This document shows positions 18,509-55,269 of a stretch of 64,000 nt of DNA, in pieces. A program made the translations under genes and the position numbers. Every line of letters starts with the position of its first letter. The first letter of the stretch is position 1. The notes below the pieces were generated by a model. That model worked only from the letters and a program-made list of their open reading frames with translations. It did not search any database and was not told the DNA's origin. Origin of the DNA: a virus; IMG/VR virus record IMGVR_UViG_3300029309_000005, positions 1-64,000 of that record, one strand, 5' to 3'.

Positions 18509-20038
18509 ATGTGTTGCATCGAGTGTAATATGCCTGAGTTTTCACCGTATGAAGATGGTGATAACATCATGCGTTTGCGTAGGTTTGCTCAAAGTGAGCC
18601 AATGAAAGTCAGAACTTCAGAAAATGACGATGATTTAACGCAAAGAGATCGCACAGAGAGTTGTTGTGATAAGTTCAAAGCGGATTTGGCTGCTGCTACA
18701 CTGACTGAGCGCATAAGTATGCTTCTCGATATGAGTTTGGGCGCAGTAAAGAGGGGTGGCAGAGGTGGCCCTGGCGAAGATGTGTATATGGGCGACTTTG
18801 GAAACTTTATGGATTGCAGAGAATTAGTTGAAGCGATAAATAATGTATTGACATATGAGACAGATGACCCTGCTGACCAAGATTCGCTAGACCAGTTAAG
18901 ACAAATAGTATTGGAATATGAGAGTTGTAAAGGTGTGCAGTTTGGAAACTTCACGCACGATATGATGCAGTTAAGTGAAAATACGTTTGAAGCGGCTTGG
19001 GATTCTATCTTTAAGATGCCGACAGATTTTGATCCGTTCCCTGATGTATCTCCAGAACAGGCTAGGGCTATTTTTGCACAGATGATGACAACCAGTGCAT
19101 TAGATAATGTAGATACGATGCCCGAAGTCAAAGTTGGTGATGCTGGTGGCGACAAGTGTTGTGCAGAGGCAAAGTCGAAGTGGATTACATACCTAACGGA
19201 ACAGTTTGATGCTGAGAACGAAATGATGGGAGATAAACAATCACACCGAGAACTTAGCGATTCAATTATAGCAAAATATGAAGCGATGGATTGTGATGAA
19301 TTCAAGATGTTTTTAGAAAATATAGCCGGAGTTAATAACAATCATCCGGTATATAGAGCGCATAACGAAAGAAAGGGATTGGGAAGGACTACCGAATCTT
19401 ATGAGGCTGCACGTATAATGGAGTCTTGGAACGCATGTGAGTTTGGCGCAGGTGAAAATGCAGAAGATATGGGGTTCTATGCAAGTGATGATTCTTTTGA
19501 AGCGACTTGGGATTCAATAAGTAAAGCCCCATTGGATATGGATTCAATCAAGCCGGTTGCTTATGTTCCAAATAATGATGATGAAAAGCGGTTTAGCATT
19601 GCAGATTTTATACACCCTAAGACTGGCAAACGCTATCCTATGGTTATGACAACGCCTTCATATTCACATGATTTTAATGTGGATATAGAATATCCACCGG
19701 ATGAACAAACTCAATTCGATGAAATGTTAGGTCACAAAATTGGTAGTAGCAATGTAAGTTATCACTTAGATCATGAACCTGATGATTTGCCATTTGCTAT
19801 GAATTATCCGATTGAAGGTGCAACCGTTAATATAAGCCCTTACATTGCAGATAATTTCAGAAACTTGGGAATGGCACAAGCGATATATGATTTGATAGAT
19901 GCTTTAGGATATAGGGTAAAGGCCAGTGACACTAGATCGGATGAAGGTGATGCGTTTTGGTCTGCTAATCAAGGCCGCACAGTTGATTCGTATGAGATGC
20001 CATTTTGGAGAAACAAAGAAACGAGGGAAAACTTATGA
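18509..20038 (+). CDS. polyprotein-like ORF: two Cys-containing helical repeats plus C-terminal GNAT-like domain, separated by two internal leader motifs
   Basis: Repeats CC...MDC.E......C. Internal SENTFEAAWDSIFK|MP and SDDSFEATWDSISK|AP. C-terminal YIADNFRNLGMAQAIYD...SDEGDAFW is GNAT motif A/B-like. Start uncertain. Confidence 0.65.
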   Translation: MCCIECNMPEFSPYEDGDNIMRLRRFAQSEPMKVRTSENDDDLTQRDRTESCCDKFKADLAAATLTERISMLLDMSLGAVKRGGRGGPGEDVYMGDFGNFMDCRELVEAINNVLTYETDDPADQDSLDQLRQIVLEYESCKGVQFGNFTHDMMQLSENTFEAAWDSIFKMPTDFDPFPDVSPEQARAIFAQMMTTSALDNVDTMPEVKVGDAGGDKCCAEAKSKWITYLTEQFDAENEMMGDKQSHRELSDSIIAKYEAMDCDEFKMFLENIAGVNNNHPVYRAHNERKGLGRTTESYEAARIMESWNACEFGAGENAEDMGFYASDDSFEATWDSISKAPLDMDSIKPVAYVPNNDDEKRFSIADFIHPKTGKRYPMVMTTPSYSHDFNVDIEYPPDEQTQFDEMLGHKIGSSNVSYHLDHEPDDLPFAMNYPIEGATVNISPYIADNFRNLGMAQAIYDLIDALGYRVKASDTRSDEGDAFWSANQGRTVDSYEMPFWRNKETRENL

Positions 20039-20142
20039 CGAGATGTAAATTATTAGACGGATGGCTTGATATTCAATCGAAAAGGATTGATGAAAAAGAA
20101 AAGCAGACCAAGAGGTGTTCTGTCACTGGTGAGAAAAAATGA
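20035..20142 (+). CDS. 35-aa small protein
   Basis: Not in track: MTRCKLLDGWLDIQSKRIDEKEKQTKRCSVTGEKK. ATGA-overlaps both neighbours exactly. Confidence 0.55.
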   Translation: MTRCKLLDGWLDIQSKRIDEKEKQTKRCSVTGEKK

Positions 20143-20621
20143 ATACTTTTGATACCGCTTGGGGGTTGCTCAAAGAGTTCCGTTTTGAAGGTGGCTTCCC
20201 AGGTATCTTATTAGCAGGTGCTTACAATCCAAAAACCGATACACCTTATGTCAATCTCGCTAGTCATGTTTCTGATTTCAAAAGACCTGCGGATTGGAAT
20301 CGAGATGGCGTTTCATATCCAGTGTTTCGAGATGATGAAGAATTAATGGAGAGGGTTCTGCGTATTCTTGCACATGAAAACATGCACCAAGCCCTTCATC
20401 CACCTTATACTGATGATTTATGGAATGAGGTTTCAATGTTTGGATTGAGCAGCAAAGATGTTGATGAGGCAGAGAGGAATCGACTTCAAGCCAAGATTGA
20501 TAATGACTGGGAAAGATTTCAAGAATATGGTGCGTGGAGTGCAACACCAGGAATTGATGAAGATGAGAAGTGGCGAATGCTACGACTCTATGGAATTTAT
20601 CCGAAGGAGGGAGAGCCATGA
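20139..20621 (+). CDS. leader-tagged zincin-like metalloprotease
   Basis: MNTFDTAWGLLK|; YVNL...RILAHENMHQAL...QEYGA (HExxH plus downstream E). Confidence 0.7.
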   Translation: MNTFDTAWGLLKEFRFEGGFPGILLAGAYNPKTDTPYVNLASHVSDFKRPADWNRDGVSYPVFRDDEELMERVLRILAHENMHQALHPPYTDDLWNEVSMFGLSSKDVDEAERNRLQAKIDNDWERFQEYGAWSATPGIDEDEKWRMLRLYGIYPKEGEP

Positions 20622-21205
20622 GTTCTTTTAATGTCGCTTGGGATTCCATTACAAAAATGCCTATTGTTCCTGGTTCAGTTTCAGAAGGAGTGCCAGATCC
20701 TAGAGCCAGATACGCAAAAAGTGGTTACAAGCAATATACGGCTTCATTTGAAGATCCTGTAACTGGTGAAATACTACCAATGTTGGCAAGACATGGCCCA
20801 AGTGACCTTCAGGTTACTATCAAAGACCCTAAAGAAGAAGTTATACTCTCGACTCTTGACCTTGACAGCCAATCCGATAACGCCTACCGAATAACATATG
20901 ATGATCAAGGTAACAAAAACCGTATGGAAGATTGGGAAATTTTGCCGCCCTACTATTCGGCAGGTTATGTAGAAACCCAAGATGACCGTCAAAGAAGGGG
21001 TTATGCTACGGCATTATATGACTTAGCAGCATACTTGTTAAGTCGAGGCCATCCAAACTACGAAGAACAATGGGGAGGCCAGCCACCGCTATCTATCGTT
21101 CCATCTGGCGACCAAGAAGAAGATGGTTTTTTGTTTTGGGAAAACGCATATAAGACTGGTAAAGTAACGGATGACGATACTTGGCGAGTGAGGGATGACT
21201 TATGA
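20618..21205 (+). CDS. leader-tagged GNAT-like acetyltransferase
   Basis: Start corrected to ATG 20618 (ATGA overlap): MSSFNVAWDSITK|MP; VETQDDRQRRGYATALYD...QEEDGFLFW. Confidence 0.7.
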   Translation: MSSFNVAWDSITKMPIVPGSVSEGVPDPRARYAKSGYKQYTASFEDPVTGEILPMLARHGPSDLQVTIKDPKEEVILSTLDLDSQSDNAYRITYDDQGNKNRMEDWEILPPYYSAGYVETQDDRQRRGYATALYDLAAYLLSRGHPNYEEQWGGQPPLSIVPSGDQEEDGFLFWENAYKTGKVTDDDTWRVRDDL

Positions 21206-22071
21206 TTAGGATTTTTGAGGTCGGCCCACGTGATGGTTTGCAGAATCTCCCCCATGTTCCATCCACAGAAGATAAAATCAAACTAATCCAATTACTGCGT
21301 GATGCAGGTCTTACTCGAATAGAAATTGCTTCATTCGTGCATCCAAAAGCAGTTCCAAACATGGCTGACGCTGAAGAAGTCTGCAAAGCGTTTGATAATA
21401 AAACTGGATTATCTGTGCTGGTTCCAAATAAGCGTGGTCTTGATCGAGCGATAGAATCTGGTATGGGCAACTTCAACATATTCTTTTCACCATCTGATAC
21501 TTTCAATGTAGCAAACTACGGTTTGAAGTTAGAACAGATATTAGAAGGATATGAAACGACTCTGCAAAATGTGTCTCCAGATATTGTTAGAGTGTATATA
21601 TCAGAGGCATTTGAAGCAAGTCAGGAGGAACTTACATTAGCGATACAACACGGTTTAAGGTTTGGAAATAGAATTGTGCTATGTGATACTAAAGGCACAG
21701 CCAAACCATTTGATATAGCAACTGGTATAGGAATCGCACAAGACTTCACACATGAAATATCATTACACCTTCATCATGGTCGCTACTTGATGAATAATGT
21801 GGCAACTGGATATGCAAACGGTGTGCGAGAGTTTGATTCGAGTATTGGCGGTCTTGGCGGTTGTCCGTTTGTTGAGAACTCTGGTGCTAATCTTGCTACT
21901 GAAGAATTAGTGAGATGGTGTAATAAGAGAGGAATAGATTGTGGAGTTAAACTATCTGATTTGAAGGCGGCACGTAAGTTAGCACATAAAATCAAAAATC
22001 CAACGCTTCGTATAGCAATAAAGAATAAGGTTAAGTCCACTAGGGATAGAATACGGGCGGGGTTATCATGA
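21202..22071 (+). CDS. hmgL: hydroxymethylglutaryl-CoA lyase (DRE-TIM)
   Basis: IFEVGPRDGLQN, IEIASFVHPKAVP.MAD, LVPNKRG, LCDT.G, HLHH, FDSSIGGLGGCPF, GANLATEEL. Confidence 0.9.
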   Translation: MIRIFEVGPRDGLQNLPHVPSTEDKIKLIQLLRDAGLTRIEIASFVHPKAVPNMADAEEVCKAFDNKTGLSVLVPNKRGLDRAIESGMGNFNIFFSPSDTFNVANYGLKLEQILEGYETTLQNVSPDIVRVYISEAFEASQEELTLAIQHGLRFGNRIVLCDTKGTAKPFDIATGIGIAQDFTHEISLHLHHGRYLMNNVATGYANGVREFDSSIGGLGGCPFVENSGANLATEELVRWCNKRGIDCGVKLSDLKAARKLAHKIKNPTLRIAIKNKVKSTRDRIRAGLS

Positions 22072-22754
22072 CGGCTTTTGACACCACTTGGGATTTGCTC
22101 AAGGATTTCTATTTTTCACCCAAGGACACGAAAATGAATGTCGTAAGACGTGATGACGGAAGCGTTCTTTCGTTTGCTGATCGGTTGGGAGAAATGCAGC
22201 CACCTATGATTGATGCCGATTATATGAGAAGGATTACAAGAGGATCTGATTTCAAACCTATTCCCTCGCCTTTTGTTGAGGGCAAGCACCAACCAGTTAT
22301 TTTGCCGAGAAATGTTGTGATGGAACATGACCCAGAAGAAGGAGGGTTTGCGCCAAGGCGAATTGATTCAATGCGAATGAGGGAAATGTATCGAGGCCAT
22401 GAAGGACTACCACACTATGTCGGAGTCAATTTATCAGCAATGCGTCAAGGCGAGGATGATTTAGATACGATATTAGAAACTTTGGCTCATGAACACGCTC
22501 ATGCAGCCATTGATGATGAGTTGATGCAGGTTTTGTATGATAGAATGGTGGAGGCTCAAAATTATGATGACGCTGAAAAAGCCTATCATCAGCACGTAGG
22601 GGCGCATGAAATCGGGGCATATAATCTCCAAAATCCAGGCGGAGAGGATGCTGCACGATCAGCCCGATTTAGCACAATACTTCATCCCAATTACAAATTA
22701 GCAAATCGGGGCAAGAGTCCACCGATGGCATACATTAGAGATAATCTAAAATAA
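22068..22754 (+). CDS. leader-tagged zincin-like metalloprotease (paralog of 20139 ORF)
   Basis: MTAFDTTWDLLK|; VGVNLS...ETLAHEHAHAAI...HEIGAY. Confidence 0.7.
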   Translation: MTAFDTTWDLLKDFYFSPKDTKMNVVRRDDGSVLSFADRLGEMQPPMIDADYMRRITRGSDFKPIPSPFVEGKHQPVILPRNVVMEHDPEEGGFAPRRIDSMRMREMYRGHEGLPHYVGVNLSAMRQGEDDLDTILETLAHEHAHAAIDDELMQVLYDRMVEAQNYDDAEKAYHQHVGAHEIGAYNLQNPGGEDAARSARFSTILHPNYKLANRGKSPPMAYIRDNLK

Positions 22755-22868: not shown

Positions 22869-23438
22869 ATGGCATCGACATTTAACTCCGCTTGGAGTGT
22901 GATTAAGATGCCAGCCAAAGGATGGGAATGCCCTGAATGTAAGATGCCAATGATGGTCGAGGACACCAAAGGAAATCATCTTACTTGTATGAATTGTGGT
23001 GCAGTTGCTTTACAGCCTATTCGCAGAAGGAGAACAAGAGGAACGGGTGAAGCCTATGCTAGAACAAACCAAGCGTATGATGATTACAAACAATCCCAAC
23101 TTGACAATCGACCTAATGAGATAAAAGCATTAGAAGATGTGGGTGTAAATGTAGTCGATAAGCCAAAGAGATTGACTGAATATAATCCCGAACACATGTT
23201 TAATCCACTAGCAATGGCACTAAACGAGTTAGGTTTTGAATCGGTTCAAGAATTACTGCAAGAGTATGTAAAGTTGAAAGCCGTAACTAAAAACCAAGAT
23301 TTGCGAGATTTAGGACTATCTGACGAAGCAGATGAACTCGATCAGCAATGGATAGAATATATTTCAAACGCACATAATCAATTTGGTAGCCCATTTATGT
23401 CAGCAAAACGGGGGAGGCGATGGGATGACCCTGTTTGA
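22869..23438 (+). CDS. leader-tagged Zn-ribbon protein
   Basis: MASTFNSAWSVIK|MP; CPEC...LTCMNCG (TFIIB-like ribbon spacing). TTTATTT box ~30 nt upstream. Confidence 0.65.
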   Translation: MASTFNSAWSVIKMPAKGWECPECKMPMMVEDTKGNHLTCMNCGAVALQPIRRRRTRGTGEAYARTNQAYDDYKQSQLDNRPNEIKALEDVGVNVVDKPKRLTEYNPEHMFNPLAMALNELGFESVQELLQEYVKLKAVTKNQDLRDLGLSDEADELDQQWIEYISNAHNQFGSPFMSAKRGRRWDDPV

Positions 23439-24189
23439 TATTGCCTGGGCTTTGCTCAAAGAAGAAGGACAACGCAGGGATGTAAAGCCCCACGCATTAT
23501 CAGGACTTGCTGATCGTAAAACTATGTCTTTTGGAGAGGGTATTGATGATGCTAGGGCATTTTATCAACTACCATTAAGCACAATTACGAGTTACGGGAG
23601 TGACGCTAAACAAAGAATAGGGCCGAACCCTTCTAAACCCAATAATGAAAACGACTGGCAACAGGTCGGCCATATTCCTTTTATTGAGGGTTATGAGGCT
23701 GAAGGATATGGTGCTTATGAATCTGAAAGTAATGCTTTGAAAGACCTAATGAATGCTGCTGTGCCGCCCTCATTTGCTCAAGATGGTTTCTATCATCCTT
23801 ACTTACACGCTTTGGATTATGACACAAACGAATGGGTTACTCATTTAGGCGAAGATGCACCGCCCACTGGCGATTATGAGCGAATCTTCAGAGCAAAGGT
23901 AATTCAAGATGGTGGGCCACTTAGCCCTCATAATCCCATTTATCCAGATTGGGTTTGGACTAAAATTGAGAGAGAGCAAGATGAGGATGGCAAACATCAT
24001 TTGACATTATACACCGCAAAATACCCTTACAGTTTAGATGAATTATATGAAAATTTACGAGAAAACCCTGAACCTTACTTTGAGTCCGGTGCGATACAAG
24101 TTGATGACAACATACAAACAGGAGAGCCAATGAGTATCGCTTGGCAGTTGTTGAAGATGCGTATTCCTAATTTGCCAGAGGGGATTTAG
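23425..24189 (+). CDS. leader-tagged hypothetical protein with second leader copy near C-terminus
   Basis: Start corrected to ATG 23425 after GGAGG: MTLFDIAWALLK|; C-terminal TGEPMSIAWQLLK|MRIPNLPEGI. Confidence 0.65.
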   Translation: MTLFDIAWALLKEEGQRRDVKPHALSGLADRKTMSFGEGIDDARAFYQLPLSTITSYGSDAKQRIGPNPSKPNNENDWQQVGHIPFIEGYEAEGYGAYESESNALKDLMNAAVPPSFAQDGFYHPYLHALDYDTNEWVTHLGEDAPPTGDYERIFRAKVIQDGGPLSPHNPIYPDWVWTKIEREQDEDGKHHLTLYTAKYPYSLDELYENLRENPEPYFESGAIQVDDNIQTGEPMSIAWQLLKMRIPNLPEGI

Positions 24190-24381
24190 ATGATGTATCT
24201 TTGCCCAATGTGTCAATCCACTGAATTTGATACTGACACTATCATTATGCAAGGTAAGTGGAGTCGTCTAATCAATTACTCGAATAAGAAATATGATGCT
24301 GTTAGTTGTAAAAATTGTGGCTATACCATGCTTTTCAAACAGGATGCTAAGTTCAGCATAATGGAGGCGTTGATAGGATGA
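24190..24381 (+). CDS. small Zn-ribbon nucleic-acid-binding protein (DUF2082-like)
   Basis: CPMCQSTEFDTDTI...SRLINYSNKKYDAVSCKNCGYTMLF; no leader. Confidence 0.7.
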   Translation: MMYLCPMCQSTEFDTDTIIMQGKWSRLINYSNKKYDAVSCKNCGYTMLFKQDAKFSIMEALIG

Positions 24382-24806
24382 CAGCCTTCGACACCGCTTG
24401 GGGCTTGCTCAAAATGCCGTTTTTTGAAGATTTACCTCAAGTAACACAAGACGACATTACATACCTTATGCTGGAACGCAACCCACACATAGACGAACAA
24501 TACAAAAGGATTCACCCAAATTACCTCAAAAGGGATATGTTCGGAATGTTTTTGCCCGAAATCGAGCAGATGGAGATAAGTCGCTTGACGAATCAAAGAC
24601 CTGTTGAAAACACAAATGCAAAAACCATTGAACGCTACATCGAAATGCTCAATCAAGGAAGCCCTTCACCTCCGATCATTGTTTCGGGAAATCAATTTGT
24701 TGATGGAGGACACCGTTTGCATTCTCATAAACAGGTTGGATTGAAGAAGATACCAGCCATAAACATTGGAGATTTGTTGGAAAAACCATTGGGGGTTGCT
24801 GAATGA
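24378..24806 (+). CDS. leader-tagged ParB/Sulfiredoxin-like protein
   Basis: MTAFDTAWGLLK|MP; PPIIV...FVDGGHRL...GLKKIPA. Confidence 0.75.
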   Translation: MTAFDTAWGLLKMPFFEDLPQVTQDDITYLMLERNPHIDEQYKRIHPNYLKRDMFGMFLPEIEQMEISRLTNQRPVENTNAKTIERYIEMLNQGSPSPPIIVSGNQFVDGGHRLHSHKQVGLKKIPAINIGDLLEKPLGVAE

Positions 24807-25255
24807 CCGCCTTCGACACCGCTTGGGATTTGATGAAAGCCCCTTTTCATGGAACTACAACTGGCGTTCTTAAAAAAATAAGAAAACGAGGACTTCAACC
24901 AAAAAGGCCAGACGCTTTCACCAGCCCGTCTGTGTTTTTTTCACAAAGCCCTGAACAGGCGATAGCATTTGCCAATATCCGTTCCGACTTGACGAGAGGT
25001 AAGTATGGTGGCGATCCCGTTCTCCTTCATTTTCCTCTTTCAGCCGTTAAGAATCCGAATCAAGGTCTATTCCGACCAACACCCGAAGATGGAGATAATC
25101 AATGGACTAAACACCCCATTCCTGCAAGTGCAATAACAGAATACTACGGGCCGCCAAAACCCAAAGACAAAGAAAAATGGGATGAATGGCAAGACGCTAT
25201 CAATTCATGGAAAAAAGAAATGATGGAACGGTATGAACAGGGGGAGTTTGATTGA
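24803..25255 (+). CDS. leader-tagged ADP-ribosyltransferase-like (Tpt1/KptA-type HGT) protein
   Basis: MTAFDTAWDLMK|APFHGTT...IRKRGLQP...VFFSQSPEQAIAFA...PVLLHF...IPASAI. Confidence 0.7.
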   Translation: MTAFDTAWDLMKAPFHGTTTGVLKKIRKRGLQPKRPDAFTSPSVFFSQSPEQAIAFANIRSDLTRGKYGGDPVLLHFPLSAVKNPNQGLFRPTPEDGDNQWTKHPIPASAITEYYGPPKPKDKEKWDEWQDAINSWKKEMMERYEQGEFD

Positions 25256-25518
25256 CTGTCTTTGACATCGCTTGGGATTTAATGAAATCTATACCTATGG
25301 ATATTATGAATGACCCTTTGGTGTATGTTGCCCCCGATAACAGCCACCGTTTCGTTAGACAAGACCGTGATTTTCGTTCTTGGTTGTATGAAAATGGCTA
25401 TCCAGCCGATGATGATTTCCTTCAATTAGATTTCATGCAACAGATACAAGTTTTGTTTCATTACAGGGTTCAGCAAGGTGCTTCAAAGGAACAGTCGTTT
25501 ATGGAGGACAATGTATGA
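25252..25518 (+). CDS. leader-tagged hypothetical protein
   Basis: TTG start; MTVFDIAWDLMK|S. Confidence 0.65.
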   Translation: MTVFDIAWDLMKSIPMDIMNDPLVYVAPDNSHRFVRQDRDFRSWLYENGYPADDDFLQLDFMQQIQVLFHYRVQQGASKEQSFMEDNV

Positions 25519-26144
25519 CCGCCTTCGATCAGGCTTGGGGCTTGCTCAAAGCACCTTATCACGGAACTACGTCAGATCGTGTTGAAAGCATAATGCGTGA
25601 GGGATTGAAGCCGAGCGATTGGAAGTCAGGGAATCGTTTTGTTGGTGGCAAGGGTCAATATGAAGAAGGAAAGCCTGTGGTTTTTGCTACATCGTTTCCA
25701 AAATTGGCGTTGAAATATGCAAAGATGGGGGCAAATAGAGCCTCAAGGCGGAGGGCGCAAGATGAAGGCAGAATTACAGGGAACTGGACTACCGCAACAT
25801 CGGACAAAACCTTTGACTCAAAATCGGGTCGCCCTGTGATTATTGAGATTGATCCGTCTTTTCCGCTTAGGCACAACAAAGAATGGAATGCCTACAAATC
25901 AAATGTCGTCATTCCGCCTCAATTTTTGCGACTTGCTTTTGAAAGCGAGATAGCCCCAACTGAACCAATCACTTATGGTCGCATGGAGGCTATCGTTGAT
26001 GGAGAATATGAGCGCATGGATCCTCAACTGCCAAGAAGTGAAGTTAAACGAAGGTTGGCCTCATACGATGACGATCCAGATGAAACGGGATATTCGCCAG
26101 AATTGAGTCTTGAAGAAATTGAAAGGCGGGTGATGCGTGAATGA
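25515..26144 (+). CDS. leader-tagged ADP-ribosyltransferase-like (Tpt1/KptA-type HGT) protein
   Basis: MTAFDQAWGLLK|APYHGTT...SIMREGLKP...VFATSFPKLALKYA...PVIIEID...IPPQFL. Confidence 0.72.
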   Translation: MTAFDQAWGLLKAPYHGTTSDRVESIMREGLKPSDWKSGNRFVGGKGQYEEGKPVVFATSFPKLALKYAKMGANRASRRRAQDEGRITGNWTTATSDKTFDSKSGRPVIIEIDPSFPLRHNKEWNAYKSNVVIPPQFLRLAFESEIAPTEPITYGRMEAIVDGEYERMDPQLPRSEVKRRLASYDDDPDETGYSPELSLEEIERRVMRE

Positions 26145-26479
26145 CCGCCTTCGACACCGCTTGGTCTTTGTTGAAAGAAGGCTTGCCGTATTACGGGAAT
26201 TGTGTTAATGGTTTTGACGATGTGGAAGTTTTGCATTATATCATTGATAATTCAATTGAAACAACCTATGATGATTTAGCAAACAATGTATCGGCAAGTG
26301 ATTTAGCCGCATTAGAACAGGGGTTGGGATATGGCGAACATTTGCATATTGCAGACGATTATGCGGCTTCCTTTCATAAATTACCTTCTTTACCCCTCTT
26401 TTACATAGACCAAAGCGGGATTGAAAGGGTGTTTGCTGAACCAAGCACAATTGAACGGATAGAGAGGTTGGTTGAATGA
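26141..26479 (+). CDS. leader-tagged hypothetical acidic protein
   Basis: MTAFDTAWSLLK|E. Confidence 0.68.
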   Translation: MTAFDTAWSLLKEGLPYYGNCVNGFDDVEVLHYIIDNSIETTYDDLANNVSASDLAALEQGLGYGEHLHIADDYAASFHKLPSLPLFYIDQSGIERVFAEPSTIERIERLVE

Positions 26480-26895
26480 ACGCCTTCGACATCGCTTGGG
26501 CTATTGTAAAAATGCAAACAGGCCATAGACGCTTTTTTTCAAAAAAGGAGATTCAAGAAATTGCCGAGATGAACAGGCATTTGGCTTTGATGATTGATGA
26601 TGGTTCACTTGACCCAGATCCAAGCGTGAATTATCCCTCTCAATGCAGGGAGTGTTTTAGTGAAATCAATAACATTGTTGAGGGTATTCCAAATCATTGT
26701 AGTCGTTGTATTCATCCCTTTGTGGATAAGCGAATAAATGATGCGATGGGAATAGCAGGTCTATTTGGAGATGGTAAGCCATTTGATTTACAAGACGCAT
26801 TGCGGCAAGACAAAAATGAAATCAATCCTTTTGATGGTTCGGCAAGTGAAGTTGATTTTAGAATGTATGAAGATAGGATGCGTGGTTTAGAATGA
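26476..26895 (+). CDS. leader-tagged CxxC protein
   Basis: MNAFDIAWAIVK|M; CREC...CSRC. Confidence 0.68.
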   Translation: MNAFDIAWAIVKMQTGHRRFFSKKEIQEIAEMNRHLALMIDDGSLDPDPSVNYPSQCRECFSEINNIVEGIPNHCSRCIHPFVDKRINDAMGIAGLFGDGKPFDLQDALRQDKNEINPFDGSASEVDFRMYEDRMRGLE

Positions 26896-27626
26896 CCGCC
26901 TTCGACACCGCTTGGCAATTGATGAAAGCACCCATTGATGTTTATTCGGATCGTGGCCGAATAAGGGAGATTACTGATGATGAGATGTTGTATAGCGGTG
27001 GGGATTTTAGAGATGACCCACGCTATTATTCAAATGACCTTGATGTTGCTTTGCATTATGCTTTGTATGGTTCAGCCATTCCCTACGCTGATTTTAGAGG
27101 GCGAAGAAATACAGAAGGAAAATCCTCTCCACCAATGCGAAGAACAATACCGAGCATCAGAATCATTGACCCAAGCGATTTTGAAGAATACGAATACGCA
27201 ATGCAAGAAGATCCATATAGCCCTGGTATTGGTGTTATGGATGATGAGAATATGGGTGAACGTTTGTCGCATGATCGAGTTATTGAATTGCTTCAAGAAT
27301 ACATTGATGAAAGACGATATGAGGGGGTTATGGGCGGAACAACAGGCGAATTATTCACCCCTGAACAAAGAGGGCAACACGCAAAAGACGCTCTTAATCG
27401 TTTGAGGGCTTACAGGGATAATGAATCACTTGAGAGGTTTAACCCCAAACCACCAACCTATGAGATGGATGCCGATGTGTTTAGAACTGCCGAATACGAT
27501 GATTTCATGGAGGCACTTTCTTATGACGATAGCATGGTTGAAATGCTTGGCGAATGGGAGGATTTAGAGGATTGGCAACGAAAAGCAGCCAAAGAAGCGG
27601 GATATTCGGAGGATGATTGGATATGA
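26892..27626 (+). CDS. leader-tagged protein, possibly a divergent ART fold
   Basis: MTAFDTAWQLMK|AP; LYSGG...YYSNDLDVALHYA resembles ART strands 1-2 with the His replaced. Confidence 0.6.
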   Translation: MTAFDTAWQLMKAPIDVYSDRGRIREITDDEMLYSGGDFRDDPRYYSNDLDVALHYALYGSAIPYADFRGRRNTEGKSSPPMRRTIPSIRIIDPSDFEEYEYAMQEDPYSPGIGVMDDENMGERLSHDRVIELLQEYIDERRYEGVMGGTTGELFTPEQRGQHAKDALNRLRAYRDNESLERFNPKPPTYEMDADVFRTAEYDDFMEALSYDDSMVEMLGEWEDLEDWQRKAAKEAGYSEDDWI

Positions 27627-28369
27627 CCGCCTTCGACACCGCTTGGAATCTTGTCAAAGAATATACTCCAAATTGGAGAGATGTTGCTAGTAATTTGCCA
27701 GAACTTTCTATGAGTGAGCGTCAAAAGTTGTTAAGCGAGGATTCTATAATGGATGATATGATGGGGCAAGGTGGCTCATTAAGCACCTTTATTCATCCAA
27801 GTGATAGAAGATTTGTTGTTAAATTACCCCACATGCAACACTCTAAAGACAATTTAGCAAGCAGGTTTGGTGATTATGATGGAGATGGTTACTACATGAC
27901 TGAATTGTTAGAAAGTCTTGGTTTCCCCGTAGTATCTGAATTTAATGTAGATGATGAGTATATTATTCAGCCAATTCTCGAAACTCATGCTTATGGTGGG
28001 TTTGGTGAACTAGGGCGGCCAACTTTAGGAATTGCAGATATTCCAATGAATCATATATTTGGCGATAGAGTAAGTGCTAATTGGGGTCGTGATCAGACAG
28101 GGAATTGGCGTTTGTTTGATACTGATATGGGTATGCCTCCACCGTATGATTGGTGGCCTTCTTCATCAGCGAATCCAGGTCAAGCCTATCAAGAAAATCT
28201 TGACAAGTTCAACATTCAATTGCCAGCCTCTAGTGTTCTCGATATTTTGGATGAAATACCAAACGACATGGATGGTTTGAGGGCTGTAATGGAATCCATT
28301 GAACCATATTCGGACAATCCGCAATATGTAACGGTTGATAAAAAACCTGTGTGGAGAACAGGGTATTGA
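27623..28369 (+). CDS. leader-tagged protein-kinase-like (HipA/PI3K-type) protein
   Basis: Start at ATG 27623: MTAFDTAWNLVK|E; MGQGG (Gly loop), FVVKLP, GDRVSANWG (DRxxxN), RLFDTD. Confidence 0.6.
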   Translation: MTAFDTAWNLVKEYTPNWRDVASNLPELSMSERQKLLSEDSIMDDMMGQGGSLSTFIHPSDRRFVVKLPHMQHSKDNLASRFGDYDGDGYYMTELLESLGFPVVSEFNVDDEYIIQPILETHAYGGFGELGRPTLGIADIPMNHIFGDRVSANWGRDQTGNWRLFDTDMGMPPPYDWWPSSSANPGQAYQENLDKFNIQLPASSVLDILDEIPNDMDGLRAVMESIEPYSDNPQYVTVDKKPVWRTGY

Positions 28370-48177: not shown

Positions 48178-49235
48178 TGAGCGCACAATGGTTTAATCCG
48201 CTTGAACAAACTCCAGAAGGACTTCTTTTGAAAGATGTTAGAGTATTATTGAAAGAAGTAAAGAACAAAAAGAAGGCTGATCTTGACAATGATGGGAAAC
48301 TATCTAGTTATGAAAAAAAGCGTGGAAAAGCAATTGAACAATCTATGGCAAGGCAAGGCTACAAATCAAATCGTGGTCAAACTCCACCAAAAAAATTACC
48401 AAGACCAAAAGGTAACAAAAACAAAATTGATAAAACAACTGAAATACTTATTGAAATGGGTATTATCAAAAATACAAATTGTAGTGAATGTAAAGAGGCA
48501 ATGAATAAAAACATGGAATGCCATAGATGCGCTGGCGTAAGAAAAGCCTCTATGGATGAGAAAGATGAGTATTGTCGAAAGAACTTTGGGCGTGAATACT
48601 CTAAATGCACACCAAAACAACAAGCGCAATGTGATAGGCATTGCGGAAAAGTGTCAAAGGCTGAGAATCATGAGAGTAAAATTAGGGCTTGCCTCAAGGA
48701 AAAAGGAGGGGCTGCTAGTCTTGATGATTGTGCCAAAGTGTGTGGTATTTCTGACAAAGAATGTAAAAAAATCATTAGCAACATGGATGGTGTAAAAATA
48801 TCACCACATGGAGATGTTGTGTTAATGGATGGTCTGCAAAAAAGCGAAATCAAAAAATACAGCCAAGAATCTAGTGTTGAAAATCTAAAACCTATTTTTG
48901 AAAATGTCGATGGTGGAAAACCTGTAAGAGCGCATGGTTTTACAACAAATGGAACATACCCTGCAACTAACGATGGCCCTAAAAAGTCAATAATAAGTGA
49001 AAATGCAAAGATTCCATCTGTTGCTCAAAAAGGATATACTGTGAAAAGTAGTAGTTTGCATATGCACTACAATGATGCTGGAGGCAATAGAAAAAATCCT
49101 CCAAATATTGATACTATTGAGCAGAGACTTGCATCACTAACAAAACATGCAGGTCGAAACAATCTTGGTATTATTGGTGAGATTGAAGGGTTGCTCAAGC
49201 AAGTTAGAGAGCGCACAGAGAATCCTTCCAATTGA
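48177..49235 (+). CDS. modular Cys-rich/basic protein, probable internal head protein
   Basis: Start ATG 48177; EF-like DLDNDGKLSSYE; small Cys modules separated by RK|AS, SK|AE, QK|SE. Confidence 0.6.
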   Translation: MSAQWFNPLEQTPEGLLLKDVRVLLKEVKNKKKADLDNDGKLSSYEKKRGKAIEQSMARQGYKSNRGQTPPKKLPRPKGNKNKIDKTTEILIEMGIIKNTNCSECKEAMNKNMECHRCAGVRKASMDEKDEYCRKNFGREYSKCTPKQQAQCDRHCGKVSKAENHESKIRACLKEKGGAASLDDCAKVCGISDKECKKIISNMDGVKISPHGDVVLMDGLQKSEIKKYSQESSVENLKPIFENVDGGKPVRAHGFTTNGTYPATNDGPKKSIISENAKIPSVAQKGYTVKSSSLHMHYNDAGGNRKNPPNIDTIEQRLASLTKHAGRNNLGIIGEIEGLLKQVRERTENPSN

Positions 49236-52200: not shown

Positions 52201-52678
52201 AGATGACCAGGCAAAAACAACAAAACAACTTTTAGAAAAAGTCAAAGGTCTAAATGAAAAAATGCTAGAAATGTATGCTGGCGAATACGGTTTGGAGAGA
52301 ACTAAAGATGGAAAAAAGTGGACTATTAATGAGGCAATAGATGACGACATCATTGAAAGAATGTTTCCACGTATGAACCGTATCTCTCCAGACGGAGGTG
52401 CTTGGGCGGGTATGCAAGCAGACATTACTGCACCAAGAGGGCCAACAGAATTGATTGAAGATAGTGGAACTACATTTTACGATCCAAAACAAAATGAAGA
52501 AGTTGAGGAAATACCAATGAAACATCTCAAAGTCAAAGATGATATGACTGGAGATGAAGCAGTTATTGACATCAAAGATGGAAAAGCAACACTTCGTATG
52601 CCATTAAAAACACAGCAGGAGTTGGCAGATGAGCAAGAAGTTGAGGCTGATGATAGATCAGAACCACAAGAAATCTGA
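49232..52678 (+). CDS. large head-module protein containing an ATP-dependent ligase-like nucleotidyltransferase domain
   Basis: EWVVQKMPKGKRMFI (motif I-like), FTFDAYL, VVDLL, PLEDRVNAL, LLIRDSKSTF, KWIRY; flanked by LLK|SD and IAK|AF. Confidence 0.6.
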   Translation: MRGDFVTSDLDRLRTDAIVSILRGSDYNIEKYMDQVPEQISGSPEDMVTMLGAMEPRLPEYRMQDLSKPLPVSQMKIPNYEDFVAGHTKISNSPIKDWPLASADNQFGEHHVFGMASNSCPLLHGAAHGDPAYAEHLAHVMPMLKQIAAREKQLNYDKRIYGDPKESQYDLMVRDRNRYRTYTDEEYSQGKIEEWKKNLGLLPYLFGLEYQTDEQRENFVDLIRQLATTEGMISPDGKFIRNKMQEKAGISWGRALRNFRARFIPLIQWWKRASDRHGPVSPVQNMMDLETLVKSDTNDAGPHYASPFVLVPPSEITNSHTYQWWDIYQPWGGVGRDLNSLHDVMKQSYPKIFDGGWLDNTLMLASNSILDTYNTDGGSHFPHLINHPQSSGTPEYSSLKSTFDDVFERKRANFSHASNLHFLHPSEITGQGGRMLIPSDQMILSRLGRSLASQTDMGAPRIGMFREEHPTSNPTYWDSHNALFAANDMHIGKVMNNMAQQVMKQFGSGILNPQDPNNIEAATLARGNLQQIASAADFVLKRMNMGEEYKALAPTLENGMMNMQIKPIGPISPNSFATTPPTYLTGNTHLWGHEMPTNLAWKEDRKSGGVKFSQIAEPFNIMQRTVHENKIKAILPSLLDTNIMPKQNDIMALSALDSRGLSPIATGSLLKSDEYEPTGVFKTKIIPAYTIHKLDDMDKLKGFSGEWVVQKMPKGKRMFIEKKENHLKNGKLPSEVKKDLRKINGDFTFDAYLDGDTLSVVDLLVHKGTDMHLEPLEDRVNALRTLYDSTENVHFPMPTNCVSTDQEGLSKAITAFDESELLIRDSKSTFMKEKEVHPKWIRYAKDSIAKAFYPPMPELIVYPNKIKLCYPSVFEPVVVKGSFDGIGFDIAGYEGNQAMLSKAVRDIPLWSPVAISLLKEGAATGSGGAFTSTSTGGFNPIHSKPNRKNRPRKLKIVKETIVRAPSVIGEDEEGDSVADTMKYARKAITIDDQAKTTKQLLEKVKGLNEKMLEMYAGEYGLERTKDGKKWTINEAIDDDIIERMFPRMNRISPDGGAWAGMQADITAPRGPTELIEDSGTTFYDPKQNEEVEEIPMKHLKVKDDMTGDEAVIDIKDGKATLRMPLKTQQELADEQEVEADDRSEPQEI

Positions 52679-52721: not shown

Positions 52722-54119
52722 ATGGCGAACAGTCTCACCATCGAAACAGCATCTTGGAGTGCTGATGGTTCTGACTTTTTGCTAAAGTCTGCTGGTAGCC
52801 AAGGTGAACTATATGTTGCTGGCTACGCATCAGTTGATATGGTGGATAAGCAGGGAGATAGAATCCCAACATCTGCGCTAAAAAAGGCATTTTCACAATT
52901 TATGGATAACAAGGCTTTCAGAAATGTTCAGTTAGCACATTCTGGAATACAGGTTGGAGAAGTGGTTGCAGACCACACTGATTCTGAAGGCCGTGTTTGG
53001 AAATCTGAAGTCGATAATCACGGACTGTTCGTAGTCTGTAAGATTCGTAACGACATACAAAAAGCACGTGAAGTGCAAAAACAAATTCGCAATGGAGATT
53101 TGCGAGCATTTTCGATTGGCGGCCAAGCCTTATTCCGTGTAAGTAAAACTACACCAGAACTTGGTAGTCATCGTGAAATAACCGATCTTGAGTTACATGA
53201 GATTACACTGTGCAAGAAAGGTATTAACCCTGAATCGGGTTATACAATACTAAAAATGGAAGGCGATAACGTGAGCAATACCGAAGTATTAGAAGAAATA
53301 AAGGCTGGACTTAGCGAAGTTCTAAAAGAATTGAGTGAGAAGGCTGATGACAAAGAAATGAAAGAAATGAAAGAAATGAAGGAGATGAAACCCTCAAGTC
53401 ATGGTGACAAAATGTATGCAGAAGATGATAAGATGTATGCAGAGGATGATAAGATGATGGGCAAATCTGAAGAAGCCGCCCTTGATTACATCACTACACT
53501 TGAGAAGTTTGCACACGATTCCGGTGTGGACTTGAACGGACTTCGTGACCACTTTGGACTTGAAAAAGCGTATATGCTAGAGCAAGGTCAAGGCGGCTAT
53601 TCCCACAGGGGTCAAGGCGATGAAATAGGATCTGGCGAAGATGCAACCGAGCCAGCCTACCCAACTCTCCCAAGTCCTGGTGGCAACCAATATGTCATCA
53701 AAGCACCAAATGTAGGAGGTATGAATATGAACGCACCAAAAGGAAACCAGAATGTTATCAAACAATTGACCCCTGAAACACTAGAAAAGGGTTACAGAAC
53801 ATATGCAGCACTTAGAGATGAAGAAGCAGTAAAAGCACTTGTAGAGAAGGAGTGGCAAGACCGCTACCATCAAGAAACTGCACACGCTCTTGAAGTTAGA
53901 AAGCAATCCGATGTTGGGCTACAACTAGATTCCCTACGTGAAGAAATTGCCATGCTAAAATCTGAAAACGCATCTCTACAAAAGAGTGACGTTACACCAA
54001 CTACACCATCCACCTCCATTCGTGTGCCAACTCATGAAGAATTCGCACAAATGGGTAGTGACTTGGAAGGCTGGAGAGCAGCAGAGATGCTTGCTCAGAG
54101 AGCATTAAGAGGTGAGTGA
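52722..54119 (+). CDS. HK97-type prohead protease fused to scaffold-like C-terminal region
   Basis: VAGYAS..VDKQGD.I, H...VG, GLFVVCKI, G.LRAFSIGG, LHEITLC..GINP; acidic coiled-coil tail. Confidence 0.9.
   Translation: MANSLTIETASWSADGSDFLLKSAGSQGELYVAGYASVDMVDKQGDRIPTSALKKAFSQFMDNKAFRNVQLAHSGIQVGEVVADHTDSEGRVWKSEVDNHGLFVVCKIRNDIQKAREVQKQIRNGDLRAFSIGGQALFRVSKTTPELGSHREITDLELHEITLCKKGINPESGYTILKMEGDNVSNTEVLEEIKAGLSEVLKELSEKADDKEMKEMKEMKEMKPSSHGDKMYAEDDKMYAEDDKMMGKSEEAALDYITTLEKFAHDSGVDLNGLRDHFGLEKAYMLEQGQGGYSHRGQGDEIGSGEDATEPAYPTLPSPGGNQYVIKAPNVGGMNMNAPKGNQNVIKQLTPETLEKGYRTYAALRDEEAVKALVEKEWQDRYHQETAHALEVRKQSDVGLQLDSLREEIAMLKSENASLQKSDVTPTTPSTSIRVPTHEEFAQMGSDLEGWRAAEMLAQRALRGE
53352..53387 (+). 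repeat. 9-nt tandem repeat AAAGAAATG (KEM x4)
   Basis: Seen directly; followed by a DKMYAED duplication. Confidence 0.85.
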
Positions 54120-54120
54120 A

Positions 54121-55269
54121 ATGACACAAGGATATATTCGCACAATTGAAGATATGGAACGCTTGTATTACGGTGCAGGTGCAGGAACAAACGCATGGGC
54201 ATACAGTGGAACAGACTTATTGAAGGCTGACAATCCCCTAATGTCCTCTACTGCTGGAACATACCAAGCCATTTTTGGTCGTAAAGTATGGTCACAGTTA
54301 AATCAAGAATTCAACGCATTTAGCATTCTGCCAAAGAAGCCTTGGGAGAAATCTGGATGGCGTGTTGTAACTGGTAAGCCAACTGATGCAGTAGGATTGC
54401 CAGAAAACGGTGCGCTACCGGATTCCACCAAGCCAACATTTGAAGAAGTTGCTACAAAGCCAAAGACAGTCGCAAGCAAATTCGACCTATCTGAAACTGC
54501 AATGTTCCTTGCTGACAAGGATGACGGTCTAGGTGACGCAAGAGCAGTTATCAAGATGGAAATGTCGAAATCTCACGCAGAATCAATTAACAAAATGTTG
54601 CTTCGTGATGTAGATACAGTCGCTGGAAACAACTTTGAATCCATTGATCGTGCTGTTTCATCATCCTTTACTGAGCCAGCATCTTTCGCTGATATTTCAG
54701 CACTATCAGACCACAACCAGTATTCTATCACCCGTAACTCAACTGGTGCTAACTCTTGGTTCGATGCAAACGTAGATGCTGGAACTGGAGGAACAGAGCG
54801 ACCATTGACACTGAATGTGCTTGATGGAATGTTTAGACAAGTTTGGGAACGTGGTGGTCAGCCAAAGGTTATTCTAACTGGCTATGACACTATTGAGAAG
54901 ATTCAACAACTATTGCAGCCTCAACAAAGATTTACTGAGATGCAAAGAGTTACACCATCAGTCAACGGAGTGCAAGGTATTCCTGGTATGGAGGGCGGAT
55001 TCGTAGTAGCAACCTACAACGGTGTGCCAATTATACCTGCTAAAGATGTTCATGCACCATCTGGTGGACTTTCAAGAATTTACATGCTAGACACAGATTA
55101 CATGTATTTCTGCACAGCAAAACCAACTCTTTACCATGAAAGCGGAATTGAGACTGGCGATCCATTCGGTATCAACAGATTGGGTCAGGTTGGTCTATTC
55201 CACACAATGGGTGAACTATGGCAACTGTTCTATGGCGCACATGGAAAGATTCGTGACCTAAGTGCATGA
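54121..55269 (+). CDS. major capsid protein (HK97 fold)
   Basis: Follows protease; ~380 aa; PKKPWEKSGWRV, LPENGALPD, YNGVPII, GEL...HGKIRDL. Confidence 0.88.
   Translation: MTQGYIRTIEDMERLYYGAGAGTNAWAYSGTDLLKADNPLMSSTAGTYQAIFGRKVWSQLNQEFNAFSILPKKPWEKSGWRVVTGKPTDAVGLPENGALPDSTKPTFEEVATKPKTVASKFDLSETAMFLADKDDGLGDARAVIKMEMSKSHAESINKMLLRDVDTVAGNNFESIDRAVSSSFTEPASFADISALSDHNQYSITRNSTGANSWFDANVDAGTGGTERPLTLNVLDGMFRQVWERGGQPKVILTGYDTIEKIQQLLQPQQRFTEMQRVTPSVNGVQGIPGMEGGFVVATYNGVPIIPAKDVHAPSGGLSRIYMLDTDYMYFCTAKPTLYHESGIETGDPFGINRLGQVGLFHTMGELWQLFYGAHGKIRDLSA

Follow-up and report, generated by a model that had tools for sequence, protein, structure and literature searches.

Phage T4 packages the ADP-ribosyltransferase Alt. 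T-even phages carry internal-protein (IP) loci with a capsid targeting sequence (Repoila et al., 1994, as cited in PMC2839356 and PMC3012670; Rao and Black, 2010, PMC3012670); T4 IP cargo includes injected counter-defence proteins, and shuffling of the T-even loci has been tied to intergenic promoter/terminator (PeSL-like) elements (PMC2839356). PeSL modular shuffling itself is known from the T4-type phages RB49 and phi1 (Arbiol et al., 2010; PMC2839356; PMC4122927), where mini-circles have been demonstrated (PMC2839356; PMC4122927) and where the authors liken the arrangement to integrons (PMC2839356).

The locus described here lies in a 64,000-nucleotide stretch of viral DNA (the window; positions 1 to 64,000 of IMG/VR record IMGVR_UViG_3300029309_000005) and resembles each of these systems in part. 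Like the T4 IP loci, it has a short N-terminal leader common to otherwise unrelated small proteins, the number, order and identity of its genes are polymorphic among relatives, and a prohead protease is encoded nearby; unlike them, it belongs to the archaeal host domain, has an S78 HK97-type protease rather than one of T4 gp21 type and a different leader sequence, and forms a larger array with 13 tagged genes in one run. As with PeSLs, short repeats flank non-essential ORFs, breakpoints of indels and replacements lie within the repeats, and there is no dedicated integrase; PeSLs, however, are a non-coding early promoter plus a stem-loop terminator that give each ORF its own promoter, whereas here, in an operon-like array, the breakpoint sequence is the coding leader itself, ATGA-coupled and with no intergenic space. 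As in integrons, promoterless, unrelated cassettes are bounded by a recurring site and vary in content and order among relatives; unlike in integrons, no IntI-type recombinase is found, the site is a direct repeat of the coding leader with no dyad symmetry rather than an attC imperfect palindrome, and exchange presumably proceeds by homology rather than by site-specific recombination. With the poxvirus-type gene accordion, which consists of tandem amplification and collapse, the array would have in common that recombination, without an integrase, alters the gene content of a virus pressed by its host; its units are distinct genes rather than repeats of a single one.

The window is part of a 96.6-kb genome (completeness estimate 91%) of a magrovirus-type tailed archaeal virus, found in runs that are marine metagenomes. 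The genome encodes a group II chaperonin (Cpn60_TCP1, E 1e-131) and a halovirus-like structural module comprising large terminase, portal, protease and capsid protein; the capsid protein is 32-33% identical to those of HCTV-1, HCTV-5 and HVTV-1, its nearest named relatives being haloarchaeal siphoviruses. The published description of magroviruses gives them genomes of ~65-100 kb that encode a chaperonin of group II, a structural module like that of haloviruses and a capsid protein with ~33% identity to its counterparts in haloarchaeal siphoviruses (PMC5434244). By these features the genome appears to be that of a magrovirus, and Marine Group II archaea are its putative host, an assignment carried over from that group. 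Magroviruses rank with the most abundant ocean archaeal viruses, and viruses and hosts are both uncultured; the magrovirus papers PMC5434244 and PMC11706807 make no mention of tagged cassette arrays.

The hypervariable array occupies 18.5-28.4 kb (Table 1) and reaches beyond the coordinates given by the initial annotation, with leader genes starting also at 20139, 20618, 22068, 22869 and 23425. The leader peptide, MTAFDTAWxLLK, is a tag of 12 residues, predicted to be helical and often followed by M/A-P; it stands at the start of 13 genes between 20.1 and 28.4 kb and of about five others past the window, and polyproteins carry internal copies of it at domain junctions. The cargoes have no Pfam, PHROG or PADLOC match and no homology to T4 IPs. 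For the cargo at 25515, an AF2 model with pLDDT 67 has Tpt1/KptA, Arr and pertussis S1 as its top, weak Foldseek matches. Cargoes also recur in fused form: the cassette at 24803 matches, at 85% DNA identity, the C-terminal portion of a 460-aa polyprotein from the related locus L006, which fuses a homologue of the 22068 cargo domain to a 24803-type cargo.

Table 1. Genes of the cassette array and the two virion genes discussed in the text.
Position	Strand	Feature	Basis
18509..20038	+	509-aa polyprotein-like gene, head of array; two internal leaders, NTFEAAWDSIFK/MP and DSFEATWDSISK/AP	translation motif scan
20139..20621	+	leader cassette (MNTFDTAWGLLK); 79% DNA identity to L011, in another context there	
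20618..21205	+	leader cassette (MSSFNVAWDSITK/MP); cargo shows a relationship to the 509-aa protein's C-terminal domain	
21202..22071	+	leaderless HMG-CoA-lyase-like gene inside array; stop supplied by ATGA of next leader	
22068..22754	+	leader cassette; cargo with HExxH (zincin-like) motif	
22869..23438	+	leader-variant cassette (MASTFNSAWSVIK/MP); zinc-ribbon cargo; preceded by 114-nt spacer	
23425..24189	+	leader cassette (MTLFDIAWALLK); degenerate leader remnant at end (MSIAWQLLKMRIPNLPEGI, then stop)	
24190..24381	+	63-aa zinc-ribbon gene (PF09855), no leader; in frame with preceding ORF	
24378..24806	+	leader cassette; one mismatch to the 24-mer	
24803..25255	+	leader cassette; exact 24-mer; YHGT-type ADP-ribosyltransferase-like cargo	
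25252..25518	+	leader cassette; variant leader with TTG start (TTGA overlap); 88 aa	
25515..26144	+	leader cassette; 24-mer with 4 mismatches; predicted ART-fold cargo	
26141..26479	+	leader cassette; exact 24-mer; 112 aa; three contexts (window, L036, L052)	
26476..26895	+	leader cassette; 24-mer with 2 mismatches; 83% identical to L002 7240-7669, in another context there	
26892..27626	+	leader cassette X; exact 24-mer; most widespread cargo	
27623..28369	+	final leader cassette; exact 24-mer; followed by 200-nt spacer and conserved methyltransferase block	
52722..54119	+	serine protease of the prohead (Peptidase_S78), tail scaffold-like; own N-terminus SWSADGSDFLLK/SAG	
54112..55269	+	major capsid protein (SU10_MCP-like)	

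At the DNA level, the 24-mer ATGACCGCCTTCGACACCGCTTGG occurs in four exact copies and in three near-copies with 1-4 mismatches, just where the initial annotation had placed them, against a chance expectation of 0.00 copies (100 shuffles); the most divergent, at 25515, carries GAT CAG in place of GAC ACC. The C-ending codons do run against genome preference, as had been noted: ACC, GCC, TTC and GAC have genomic usages of 0.11, 0.11, 0.35 and 0.22, so that the probability of this codon set given the peptide is 3.7e-5 per gene. At 81414 a further copy spells this peptide with the codons GCT TTT GAT ACT. Relatives supply 118 non-redundant leaders, with exact MTAFDTAW in 28 loci. Across this family ACC holds 80% of codon 2 and 90% of codon 6, GCC makes up 1% of codon 7, and codon 4 (TTY) follows cargo usage; codon 2 begins with A in all leaders, and the ATGA stop-start overlap needs this A at +4. 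Silent-site identity among orthologous cassettes is 0.72 in the leader and 0.71 in the cargo. Leaders differ at 1.84 silent sites within a contig and at 2.58 between contigs (permutation p ~0.0015); the leader of cassette X, with 3.9 differences from co-resident leaders and 4.2 from orthologous X leaders elsewhere, is not decisive. The proposal that the leader is conserved as DNA thus holds for the four exact copies in the window and has some backing in the similarity within genomes; it is weaker for the family, where the leader is kept primarily as a peptide, together with the A at +4 and site-specific codon preferences.

From 24378 to 27623, every junction is an ATGA or TTGA overlap of stop and start, preceded within the upstream gene by a GGAGG/GGGGG/GGTG-like site; intergenic space is nil, and the repeated element lies in coding sequence. 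The successive ATG-to-ATG periods from 24378 (425, 449, 263, 626, 335, 416 and 731 nt) are all 2 mod 3, so that the reading frames rotate regularly. Stop, start and reading phase are all built into each junction.

Every relative compared is a metagenome assembly, and all junctions are read from contigs. Had the array been a fixed gene cluster, content and order would recur; the arrays in 29 loci, all upstream of the conserved methyltransferase block, all differ in both. The window matches relatives only cassette by cassette, in blocks that open at a leader ATG and close where the following leader ends (for example 26476-26905 against L002, 20147-20621 against L011, and 26892-27646 against L015, L019, L020, L021 and L022); DNA identity is ~0 just 5' of the leader ATG and drops sharply right after the TGG of the next leader. 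The leader zone makes up ~7.5% of array length and contains about 75% of homology-block ends: among 426 HSPs from 32 non-redundant loci, the interval -10..+5 around a leader ATG takes 56% of left ends (null 2%), and +6..+50 takes 74% of right ends (null 5.5%). Cassette X is found in 15 upstream and 15 downstream DNA contexts, with neighbours unrelated at the protein level in at least 10 upstream and at least 11 downstream, and its copies from different contexts differ by 11-27% in protein; between L032 and L033 it is 96.5% identical, against 85-90% for the backbone of the same pair. In co-occurring variants from the same samples, the cassettes at 24378 and 25515 have other neighbours, with divergence beginning 7-8 nt into the leaders; for 24378 these variants are the more abundant ones and ~97% identical in the cassette. 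Two apparent joints in same-sample contigs have a basis of 27-33 nt and are leader cross-matches.

Alignment further resolves indels and replacements of whole cassettes and a single swap; their breakpoints lie in the leader, as the initial annotation had predicted. L036 lacks the 416-bp unit 26476-26891, and the junction there lies inside the leader with a 32-nt overlap; L033 and L032 differ by a 311-bp one-cassette indel with a 19-nt flanking repeat, which leaves a chimeric leader in L032; and L002 and L046 differ by a 589-bp one-cassette indel between 18-nt repeats (GCCTTTGAAACCGCTTGG), with flanks 98.6% and 100.000% identical, the latter over 6051 nt. The swap is between L041 and L043 (X-C-A and X-A-C, per-cassette identities 95/77/82/92%). 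Genomes from different samples that are 99.8-99.98% identical over 14-16 kb (L030/L031, L032/L034) are collinear and free of indels; cassette events are therefore not frequent. The arrays examined hold no tandem near-identical copies, within-array paralogues being 30-58% identical. With no fresh tandem duplicates the array is not an accordion, as it had originally been called; the epithet integrase-free suits it better, since profile searches of the 96.6-kb genome (estimated 91% complete) find neither an IntI-type tyrosine recombinase (PF00589) nor a resolvase (PF00239). The Pfam Rad51 profile likewise gives no recombinase match, and a magrovirus RadA-like ATPase has been reported only through profile-profile search (PMC5434244).

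These considerations make it likely, in our judgement, that the cassettes of 18.5-28.4 kb, which are coupled in translation and form a hypervariable array, are shuffled at their leaders, with the leader peptide serving as a signal for capsid loading or processing. Each unit consists of a 12-codon leader, an unrelated cargo and a Shine-Dalgarno-like site for the next gene, its stop codon being provided by the ATG-A of the following leader. Because units share an 18-36 nt start and have lengths of 2 mod 3, leader-by-leader recombination would keep translation intact; between any two leaders, whole cassettes could be deleted, inserted, replaced or reordered, within one genome or between co-infecting relatives. 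We infer that this occurs by recombination, for which short-homology recombination, single-strand annealing or template switching are conceivable routes, carried out by viral or host proteins of replication and repair. The homology of leader DNA would then be a side effect of keeping the peptide, one put to use by the virus lineage.

The microhomology originally proposed for the repeats is borne out as far as the location of breakpoints in indels, replacements and the swap; that leader DNA is itself the recombination substrate, rather than merely the site of viable junctions, is suggested by the chimeric leaders. If the leader were functional as a peptide only, cassettes could move by illegitimate or gene-boundary recombination followed by selection, leader DNA would simply be where viable junctions lie, and the four identical 24-mers would reflect codon preference or recent common descent. 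Family-wide site-specific codon preferences resemble site selection rather than uniform homogenisation, and the equal silent-site identity of leader and cargo points the same way; gene-level mosaicism without intergenic space would by itself place block ends at gene starts, and homology blocks do begin at the ATG of the leaderless HMG-CoA lyase gene too. We nevertheless consider this unlikely: the three clean indels share 18-32 nt of leader at the junction, the shorter form carrying a chimeric leader and one case having a 100% identical flank over 6 kb, the right ends of blocks coincide with the end of the next leader and not with the stop codon, leaders are more alike within than between genomes, and random breaks would seldom restore an exact in-phase ATGA junction. 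It is very improbable that the shuffling is an assembly artefact, with assemblers jumping at leaders between co-occurring strains to form chimeric contigs. All sequences compared are metagenome contigs, Logan contigs from four runs do break at or near leaders (24365-24387, 24779-24800, 26164, 26466), and exact repeats of 18-26 nt are near the smallest k-mers of some assemblers; yet they are below the usual final k, the same arrays are recovered from different samples in the near-identical pairs named above (also L035, L037 and L048), contigs from independent runs bridge the 26892 junction of the window (two records), and the protein difference among X copies shows that they are not fragments of one population.

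Silent sites might also be conserved for RNA-level translational coupling, the CCGCC/CCUUC of the leader pairing with the upstream GGAGG until the upstream ribosome opens the hairpin and so permits translation of the next gene. This would fit the invariant A of codon 2, required for the ATGA overlap, and the minimum-energy folds at 24378, 26141 and 27623, which pair the SD-like site with GCCTTC/CCGCC; it is made rather improbable by the fraction of synonymous variants at or below the observed energy, which at 12 junctions takes values between 0.005 and 0.855 with no consistent structure bias, and by TTC, the best-pairing codon, which is not favoured family-wide (30%, against 34% in cargo). We hold it equally doubtful that the leader has a dual use, as capsid-loading peptide and as a dedicated, phase-preserving coding recombination site, whose fixed nucleotides (A at +4, ACC...ACC GCT TGG) would be kept as the target of a virus-encoded nuclease or annealing protein; if true, it would be an integrase-free integron analogue in an archaeal virus, driving cassette exchange between co-infecting magroviruses.

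Shuffling at the leaders, our preferred reading, shows an archaeal-virus counterpart of the T4 solution of one leader, many cargoes and shuffled loci, with the coding leader as the exchange point. The ~13 tagged, rapidly exchanged genes are a likely pool of infection-delivered proteins, for example for counter-defence or host take-over, including ADP-ribosyltransferase-fold, zincin-like and many uncharacterised proteins; searching metagenomes for the tag is an easy way to find such proteins. As in T4 internal proteins, the leader peptide is probably a signal for capsid loading and for processing by the prohead protease, the S78 enzyme being a candidate for cleavage after LLK. Polyprotein junctions repeat the motif LLK before A/M-P, and it is found again close to the N-terminus of both the protease and the capsid protein; in the latter, residues 28-42 read AWAYSGTDLLK/ADNP and are kept in all sampled homologues.

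Every copy of the 24-mer ATGACCGCCTTCGACACCGCTTGG in the window opens an ORF that begins with the residues M-T-A-F-D-T-A-W-x-L-L-K, a 12-residue N-terminal tag referred to here as the leader; exact copies occur where shuffled sequences are expected to yield none, and are accompanied by near-copies (see table). The junctions from 24378 to 27623 are all ATGA or TTGA stop-start overlaps with a GGAGG-, GGGGG- or GGTG-like site upstream, and the ATG-to-ATG periods (425, 449, 263, 626, 335, 416, and 731 nt) are each 2 mod 3; the frame thus rotates regularly, and any unit, consisting of a leader, an unrelated cargo and the ribosome-binding site for the next gene, can be inserted or removed in phase. 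The leader is written with ACC GCC TTC GAC ACC, codons little used in the genome as a whole (ACC 0.11, GCC 0.11, TTC 0.35, GAC 0.22), the probability of the codon set given the peptide being 3.7e-5; at 81414 the same peptide is written GCT TTT GAT ACT. Copy positions, mismatch counts, codon usage, and the junction scan thus bear out the repeat with C-ending codons and the ATGA coupling described in the initial annotation, and the array extends beyond the 24378-27646 marked there.

Features of the leader array and of the viral genome, including the segments of single cassettes that are similar to related loci (L numbers, metagenome-assembled contigs)
Feature	Position	Detail
Exact 24-mer copies	24803, 26141, 26892, 27623	
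24-mer near-copies	24378, 26476, 25515	1, 2, and 4 mismatches, respectively
Leader variant	25252	TTG start
Further leader genes	20139, 20618, 22068, 22869, 23425	start positions
509-aa ORF	18509-20038	two internal leader copies, ..FEAAWDSIFK/MP and ..FEATWDSISK/AP
HMG-CoA-lyase-like gene	21202-22071	intact, leaderless, inside the array
Zinc ribbon ORF (PF09855)	24190-24381	leaderless, same frame as the 23425 protein
Second small leader-tagged set, about 5 genes beyond the window	80658-81866 (+), 86033-86900 (-)	MVSLFEKAWHLLK, MTETFEIAWELMK, MTAFDTAWDLLK, MTVFQKAWDLLK, MNAFENSWNTLK
479-aa protein adjoining the second set	82246-83685	homologue of the 22068 cargo
Cassette segment	20147-20621	L011, 79%
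Cassette segment	24823-25258	L006, 85%
Cassette segment	26476-26905	L002, 83%
Cassette segment	26892-27646	L021, 88%; L019 and L022, 84-85%; L015, 79%; L020, 73%
1148-aa protein, between portal and protease	49232-52678	without Pfam or PHROG match
HK97-type prohead protease	52722-54119	Peptidase_S78, scaffold-like tail
Major capsid protein	window	SU10-like
Large terminase and portal protein	window	
Group II chaperonin	window	Cpn60_TCP1, E 1e-131

Near the end of the 23425 protein, 19 codons ahead of its TAG, lies a degenerate leader (..PMSIAWQLLKMRIPNLPEGI), and the next ORF is the zinc ribbon; the segment 24103-24381 has the appearance of a cassette junction that has decayed or been fused. The HMG-CoA-lyase-like gene takes varying array positions in at least 10 relatives, and a leader gene always comes directly after it. 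The second tagged set is written with A/T-ending codons.

In all related loci, a run of leader genes is followed by the same conserved methyltransferase block and the genes downstream of it, and array content and order are different in every one. DNA similarity between the window's array and its relatives is limited to single cassettes, each block starting at a leader ATG and stopping where the following leader ends; the viral contigs contain no relative of cassette 24378. For cassette X (26892-27626), identity is about zero directly 5' of the ATG, high across X and the following 24-mer, and drops after the TGG. With the metagenome scan included, X occurs in 15 upstream and 15 downstream DNA contexts, all different; its neighbors are unrelated at the protein level in at least 10 cases upstream and at least 11 downstream, and the downstream gene starts with a leader in every case. 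Among 426 HSPs between 32 non-redundant loci, which are not independent events, though the enrichment is large, 56% of left ends fall within -10 to +5 of a leader ATG (null 2%) and 74% of right ends within +6 to +50 (null 5.5%).

Individual rearrangements can be read from pairs of contigs. In L036, a metagenome contig of 1840 nt, positions 581-946 correspond to window 26141-26507 (91%) and 915-1664 to 26891-27646 (86.5%). These matches share 32 nt, namely the leader, so that the 416-bp cassette 26476-26891 is missing, with the junction within the leader. L033 and L032 have 85-90% identical backbones, and L033 has one additional cassette of 311 bp between two copies of the 19-nt repeat CGCATTCGATGAAGCATGG; L032 has one chimeric leader, of which the left side matches one L033 repeat copy and the right side the other. 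X in this pair is 96.5% identical, above the backbone, with limits exactly at the leaders. L002 and L046, from different samples, are 100.000% identical over 6051 nt downstream and 98.6% over 277 nt upstream of an extra 589-bp cassette in L002, which has a YHGT-type cargo and is flanked by the 18-nt repeat GCCTTTGAAACCGCTTGG; L046 has a single chimeric leader in its place. Cassette order is X-C-A in L041 versus X-A-C in L043 (per-cassette identities 95, 77, 82, and 92%), and cassette 26141 is found in three contexts (window, L036, and L052). In two runs, more abundant co-occurring variants hold cassettes 24378 and 25515 (about 97%) with other neighbors, diverging from 7-8 nt into the leaders. 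Comparison with relatives thus yields cassette indels, replacements and one swap, with breakpoints in the leader, as the initial annotation had anticipated; the shuffling it proposed stands, whereas its view of the leader as conserved at the DNA level and of the array as a gene accordion went too far. That the exchanges proceed by recombination is what we infer. In one further X copy (L042:3024-3761), the leader is a different variant, MSDAFQRSWSVVK, and homology to the window begins past it, which suggests that leader and cargo may be separable.

All relatives are assemblies, and the junction evidence is at contig level. That the arrays are purely an artefact of assembly is unlikely: the same arrays recur across samples, copies of X diverge by 11-27%, and the window's junction at 26892 is spanned by independent contigs. 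Two joints in Logan contigs (22102>24801 and 26515>24801) are leader cross-matches with a short side of 27-33 nt and were left uncounted, and parts of the window uncovered in some runs were not taken as evidence. Between samples, genomes of 99.8-99.98% identity remain collinear over stretches of 14-16 kb, which indicates that turnover is not particularly rapid. A gene accordion is rejected, as the paralogues within the array are old, at most 58% identical, with no recent tandem amplification. An integron is likewise rejected, the array being without integrase and without attC-like site; the search for an integrase or resolvase found none in the 96,627-bp genome, in keeping with the term integrase-free applied earlier. 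A search for a Rad51-type recombinase (PF08423) gave no match; in magroviruses, a RadA-like ATPase, SSB, and nucleases are recognized by sensitive searches only (PMC5434244).

A degenerate DNA pattern for MTAFDTAW finds 28 loci on about 24 IMG/VR contigs, nearly always at an ORF start with a GGAGG-like site upstream. In 118 non-redundant canonical leaders from relatives, the first base of codon 2 is always A, giving the ATGA overlap; Thr is ACC in 80% at codon 2 and in 90% at codon 6 (cargo 23%), Ala at codon 7 is GCT in 56% and GCC in 1% (GCC in cargo 22%), and Phe at codon 4 is TTC in 30% (cargo 34%). The nucleotide constraints are thus site-specific and do not reflect uniform homogenization. 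RNA structure was rejected as their cause, the folding trend of the region -30 to +45, compared with all synonymous leader variants, being inconsistent over 12 junctions; avoidance of CCWGG was rejected for the missing GCC at codon 7, the depletion of this site being mild (0.66-0.71). Among nine X orthologues, silent-site identity is 0.72 in the leader and 0.71 in the cargo, and extra conservation of the leader is therefore rejected. Leaders differ by 1.84 silent changes within and 2.58 between contigs (permutation p ~0.0015), partly an effect of this window; that the X leader evolves in concert with co-resident ones was dropped as a reading, the differences to these (3.9) and to X leaders elsewhere (4.2) not being decisive. 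The claim of conservation as DNA thus fits the four exact 24-mers of the window but is overstated for the orthologues. In our reading, the leader is conserved mostly as a peptide, together with the A at +4, and the four identical 24-mers point to a local, fairly recent process, either homogenization or the building of the array out of one shared pool.

The leader is helical by prediction. In a 460-aa protein of L006 (L006:12144-13526, minus strand) it is internal (..SFDDVWDLMK/AP) and links a domain of zincin-like type, a homologue of the 22068 cargo, to a cargo 83% identical to that of 24803; the homologues of 22068 and 24803, fused here, are separate genes in the window. In both polyprotein-like genes, this one and the 509-aa ORF, the motif sits at domain junctions. 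As it is kept when internal, a processing or recognition site seems likelier than a mere N-terminal extension. Related segments are found in the capsid protein (residues 28-42, ..AWAYSGTDLLK/ADNP.., conserved in all sampled homologues) and at the N-terminus of the S78 protease (..SWSADGSDFLLK/SAG). The 1148-aa protein contains ..PLWSPVAISLLK/EG and ..GSLLK/SDEYE, which resemble the leader end and make it a possible further protease substrate. The set of leader and protease would resemble the capsid targeting sequence and head-protease processing of injected proteins in T4 (PMC3012670), and the tagged proteins are probably capsid cargo.

The cargoes gave nothing significant against Pfam, PADLOC, and PDB sequences. 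In the 25515/24803 family, H-G-T is invariant, and all matches of the model (pLDDT 67) are ADP-ribosyltransferase folds (Tpt1/KptA, E 2e-3; Arr; pertussis S1), if weak; for cassette X, the AF2 model is unusable (pLDDT 46) and the protein atlas gives weak ART-type leads (0.83-0.86).

The genome is, judged by its genes, that of a magrovirus-type tailed virus with marine archaea as putative host. The closest named relatives of its capsid protein are those of the haloarchaeal siphoviruses HCTV-1, HCTV-5, and HVTV-1 (32-33% identity), a relatedness that agrees with the magrovirus description in PMC5434244; the runs containing the DNA are marine metagenomes, and megablast against GenBank phages returned no near relatives.

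The closest known systems are the internal-protein loci of T-even phages and the modular shuffling mediated by PeSLs, the non-coding promoter and stem-loop terminator elements of T4-type phages. The former are highly polymorphic and encode many unrelated injected proteins with only the capsid targeting sequence in common (PMC3012670; PMC2839356, citing Repoila et al. 1994); in the latter, short repeated regulatory cassettes recombine to insert, delete or replace ORFs without an integrase (PMC2839356), and excised mini-circles have been demonstrated. The magrovirus array differs from both in its putative archaeal host, in that the coding leader provides the sequence shared at the breakpoints, and in the ATGA overlap, which makes each unit phase-compatible, its stop being supplied by the next leader; it further differs from T4 in an unrelated protease family and leader, and from PeSLs in having no intergenic element. 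Two papers on magroviruses (PMC5434244, PMC11706807) mention neither a conserved N-terminal leader nor a hypervariable array. A known principle, in which a short tag accompanies shuffled unrelated genes, thus appears in a new form, with the coding leader itself at the breakpoints.

Over the whole genome, GTAC is absent where about 218 occurrences are expected from a Markov estimate, and GATC occurs at 0.41 times its expected frequency, a pattern that looks like strong restriction-site avoidance; the virus also encodes C5 and Dam-like methyltransferases.
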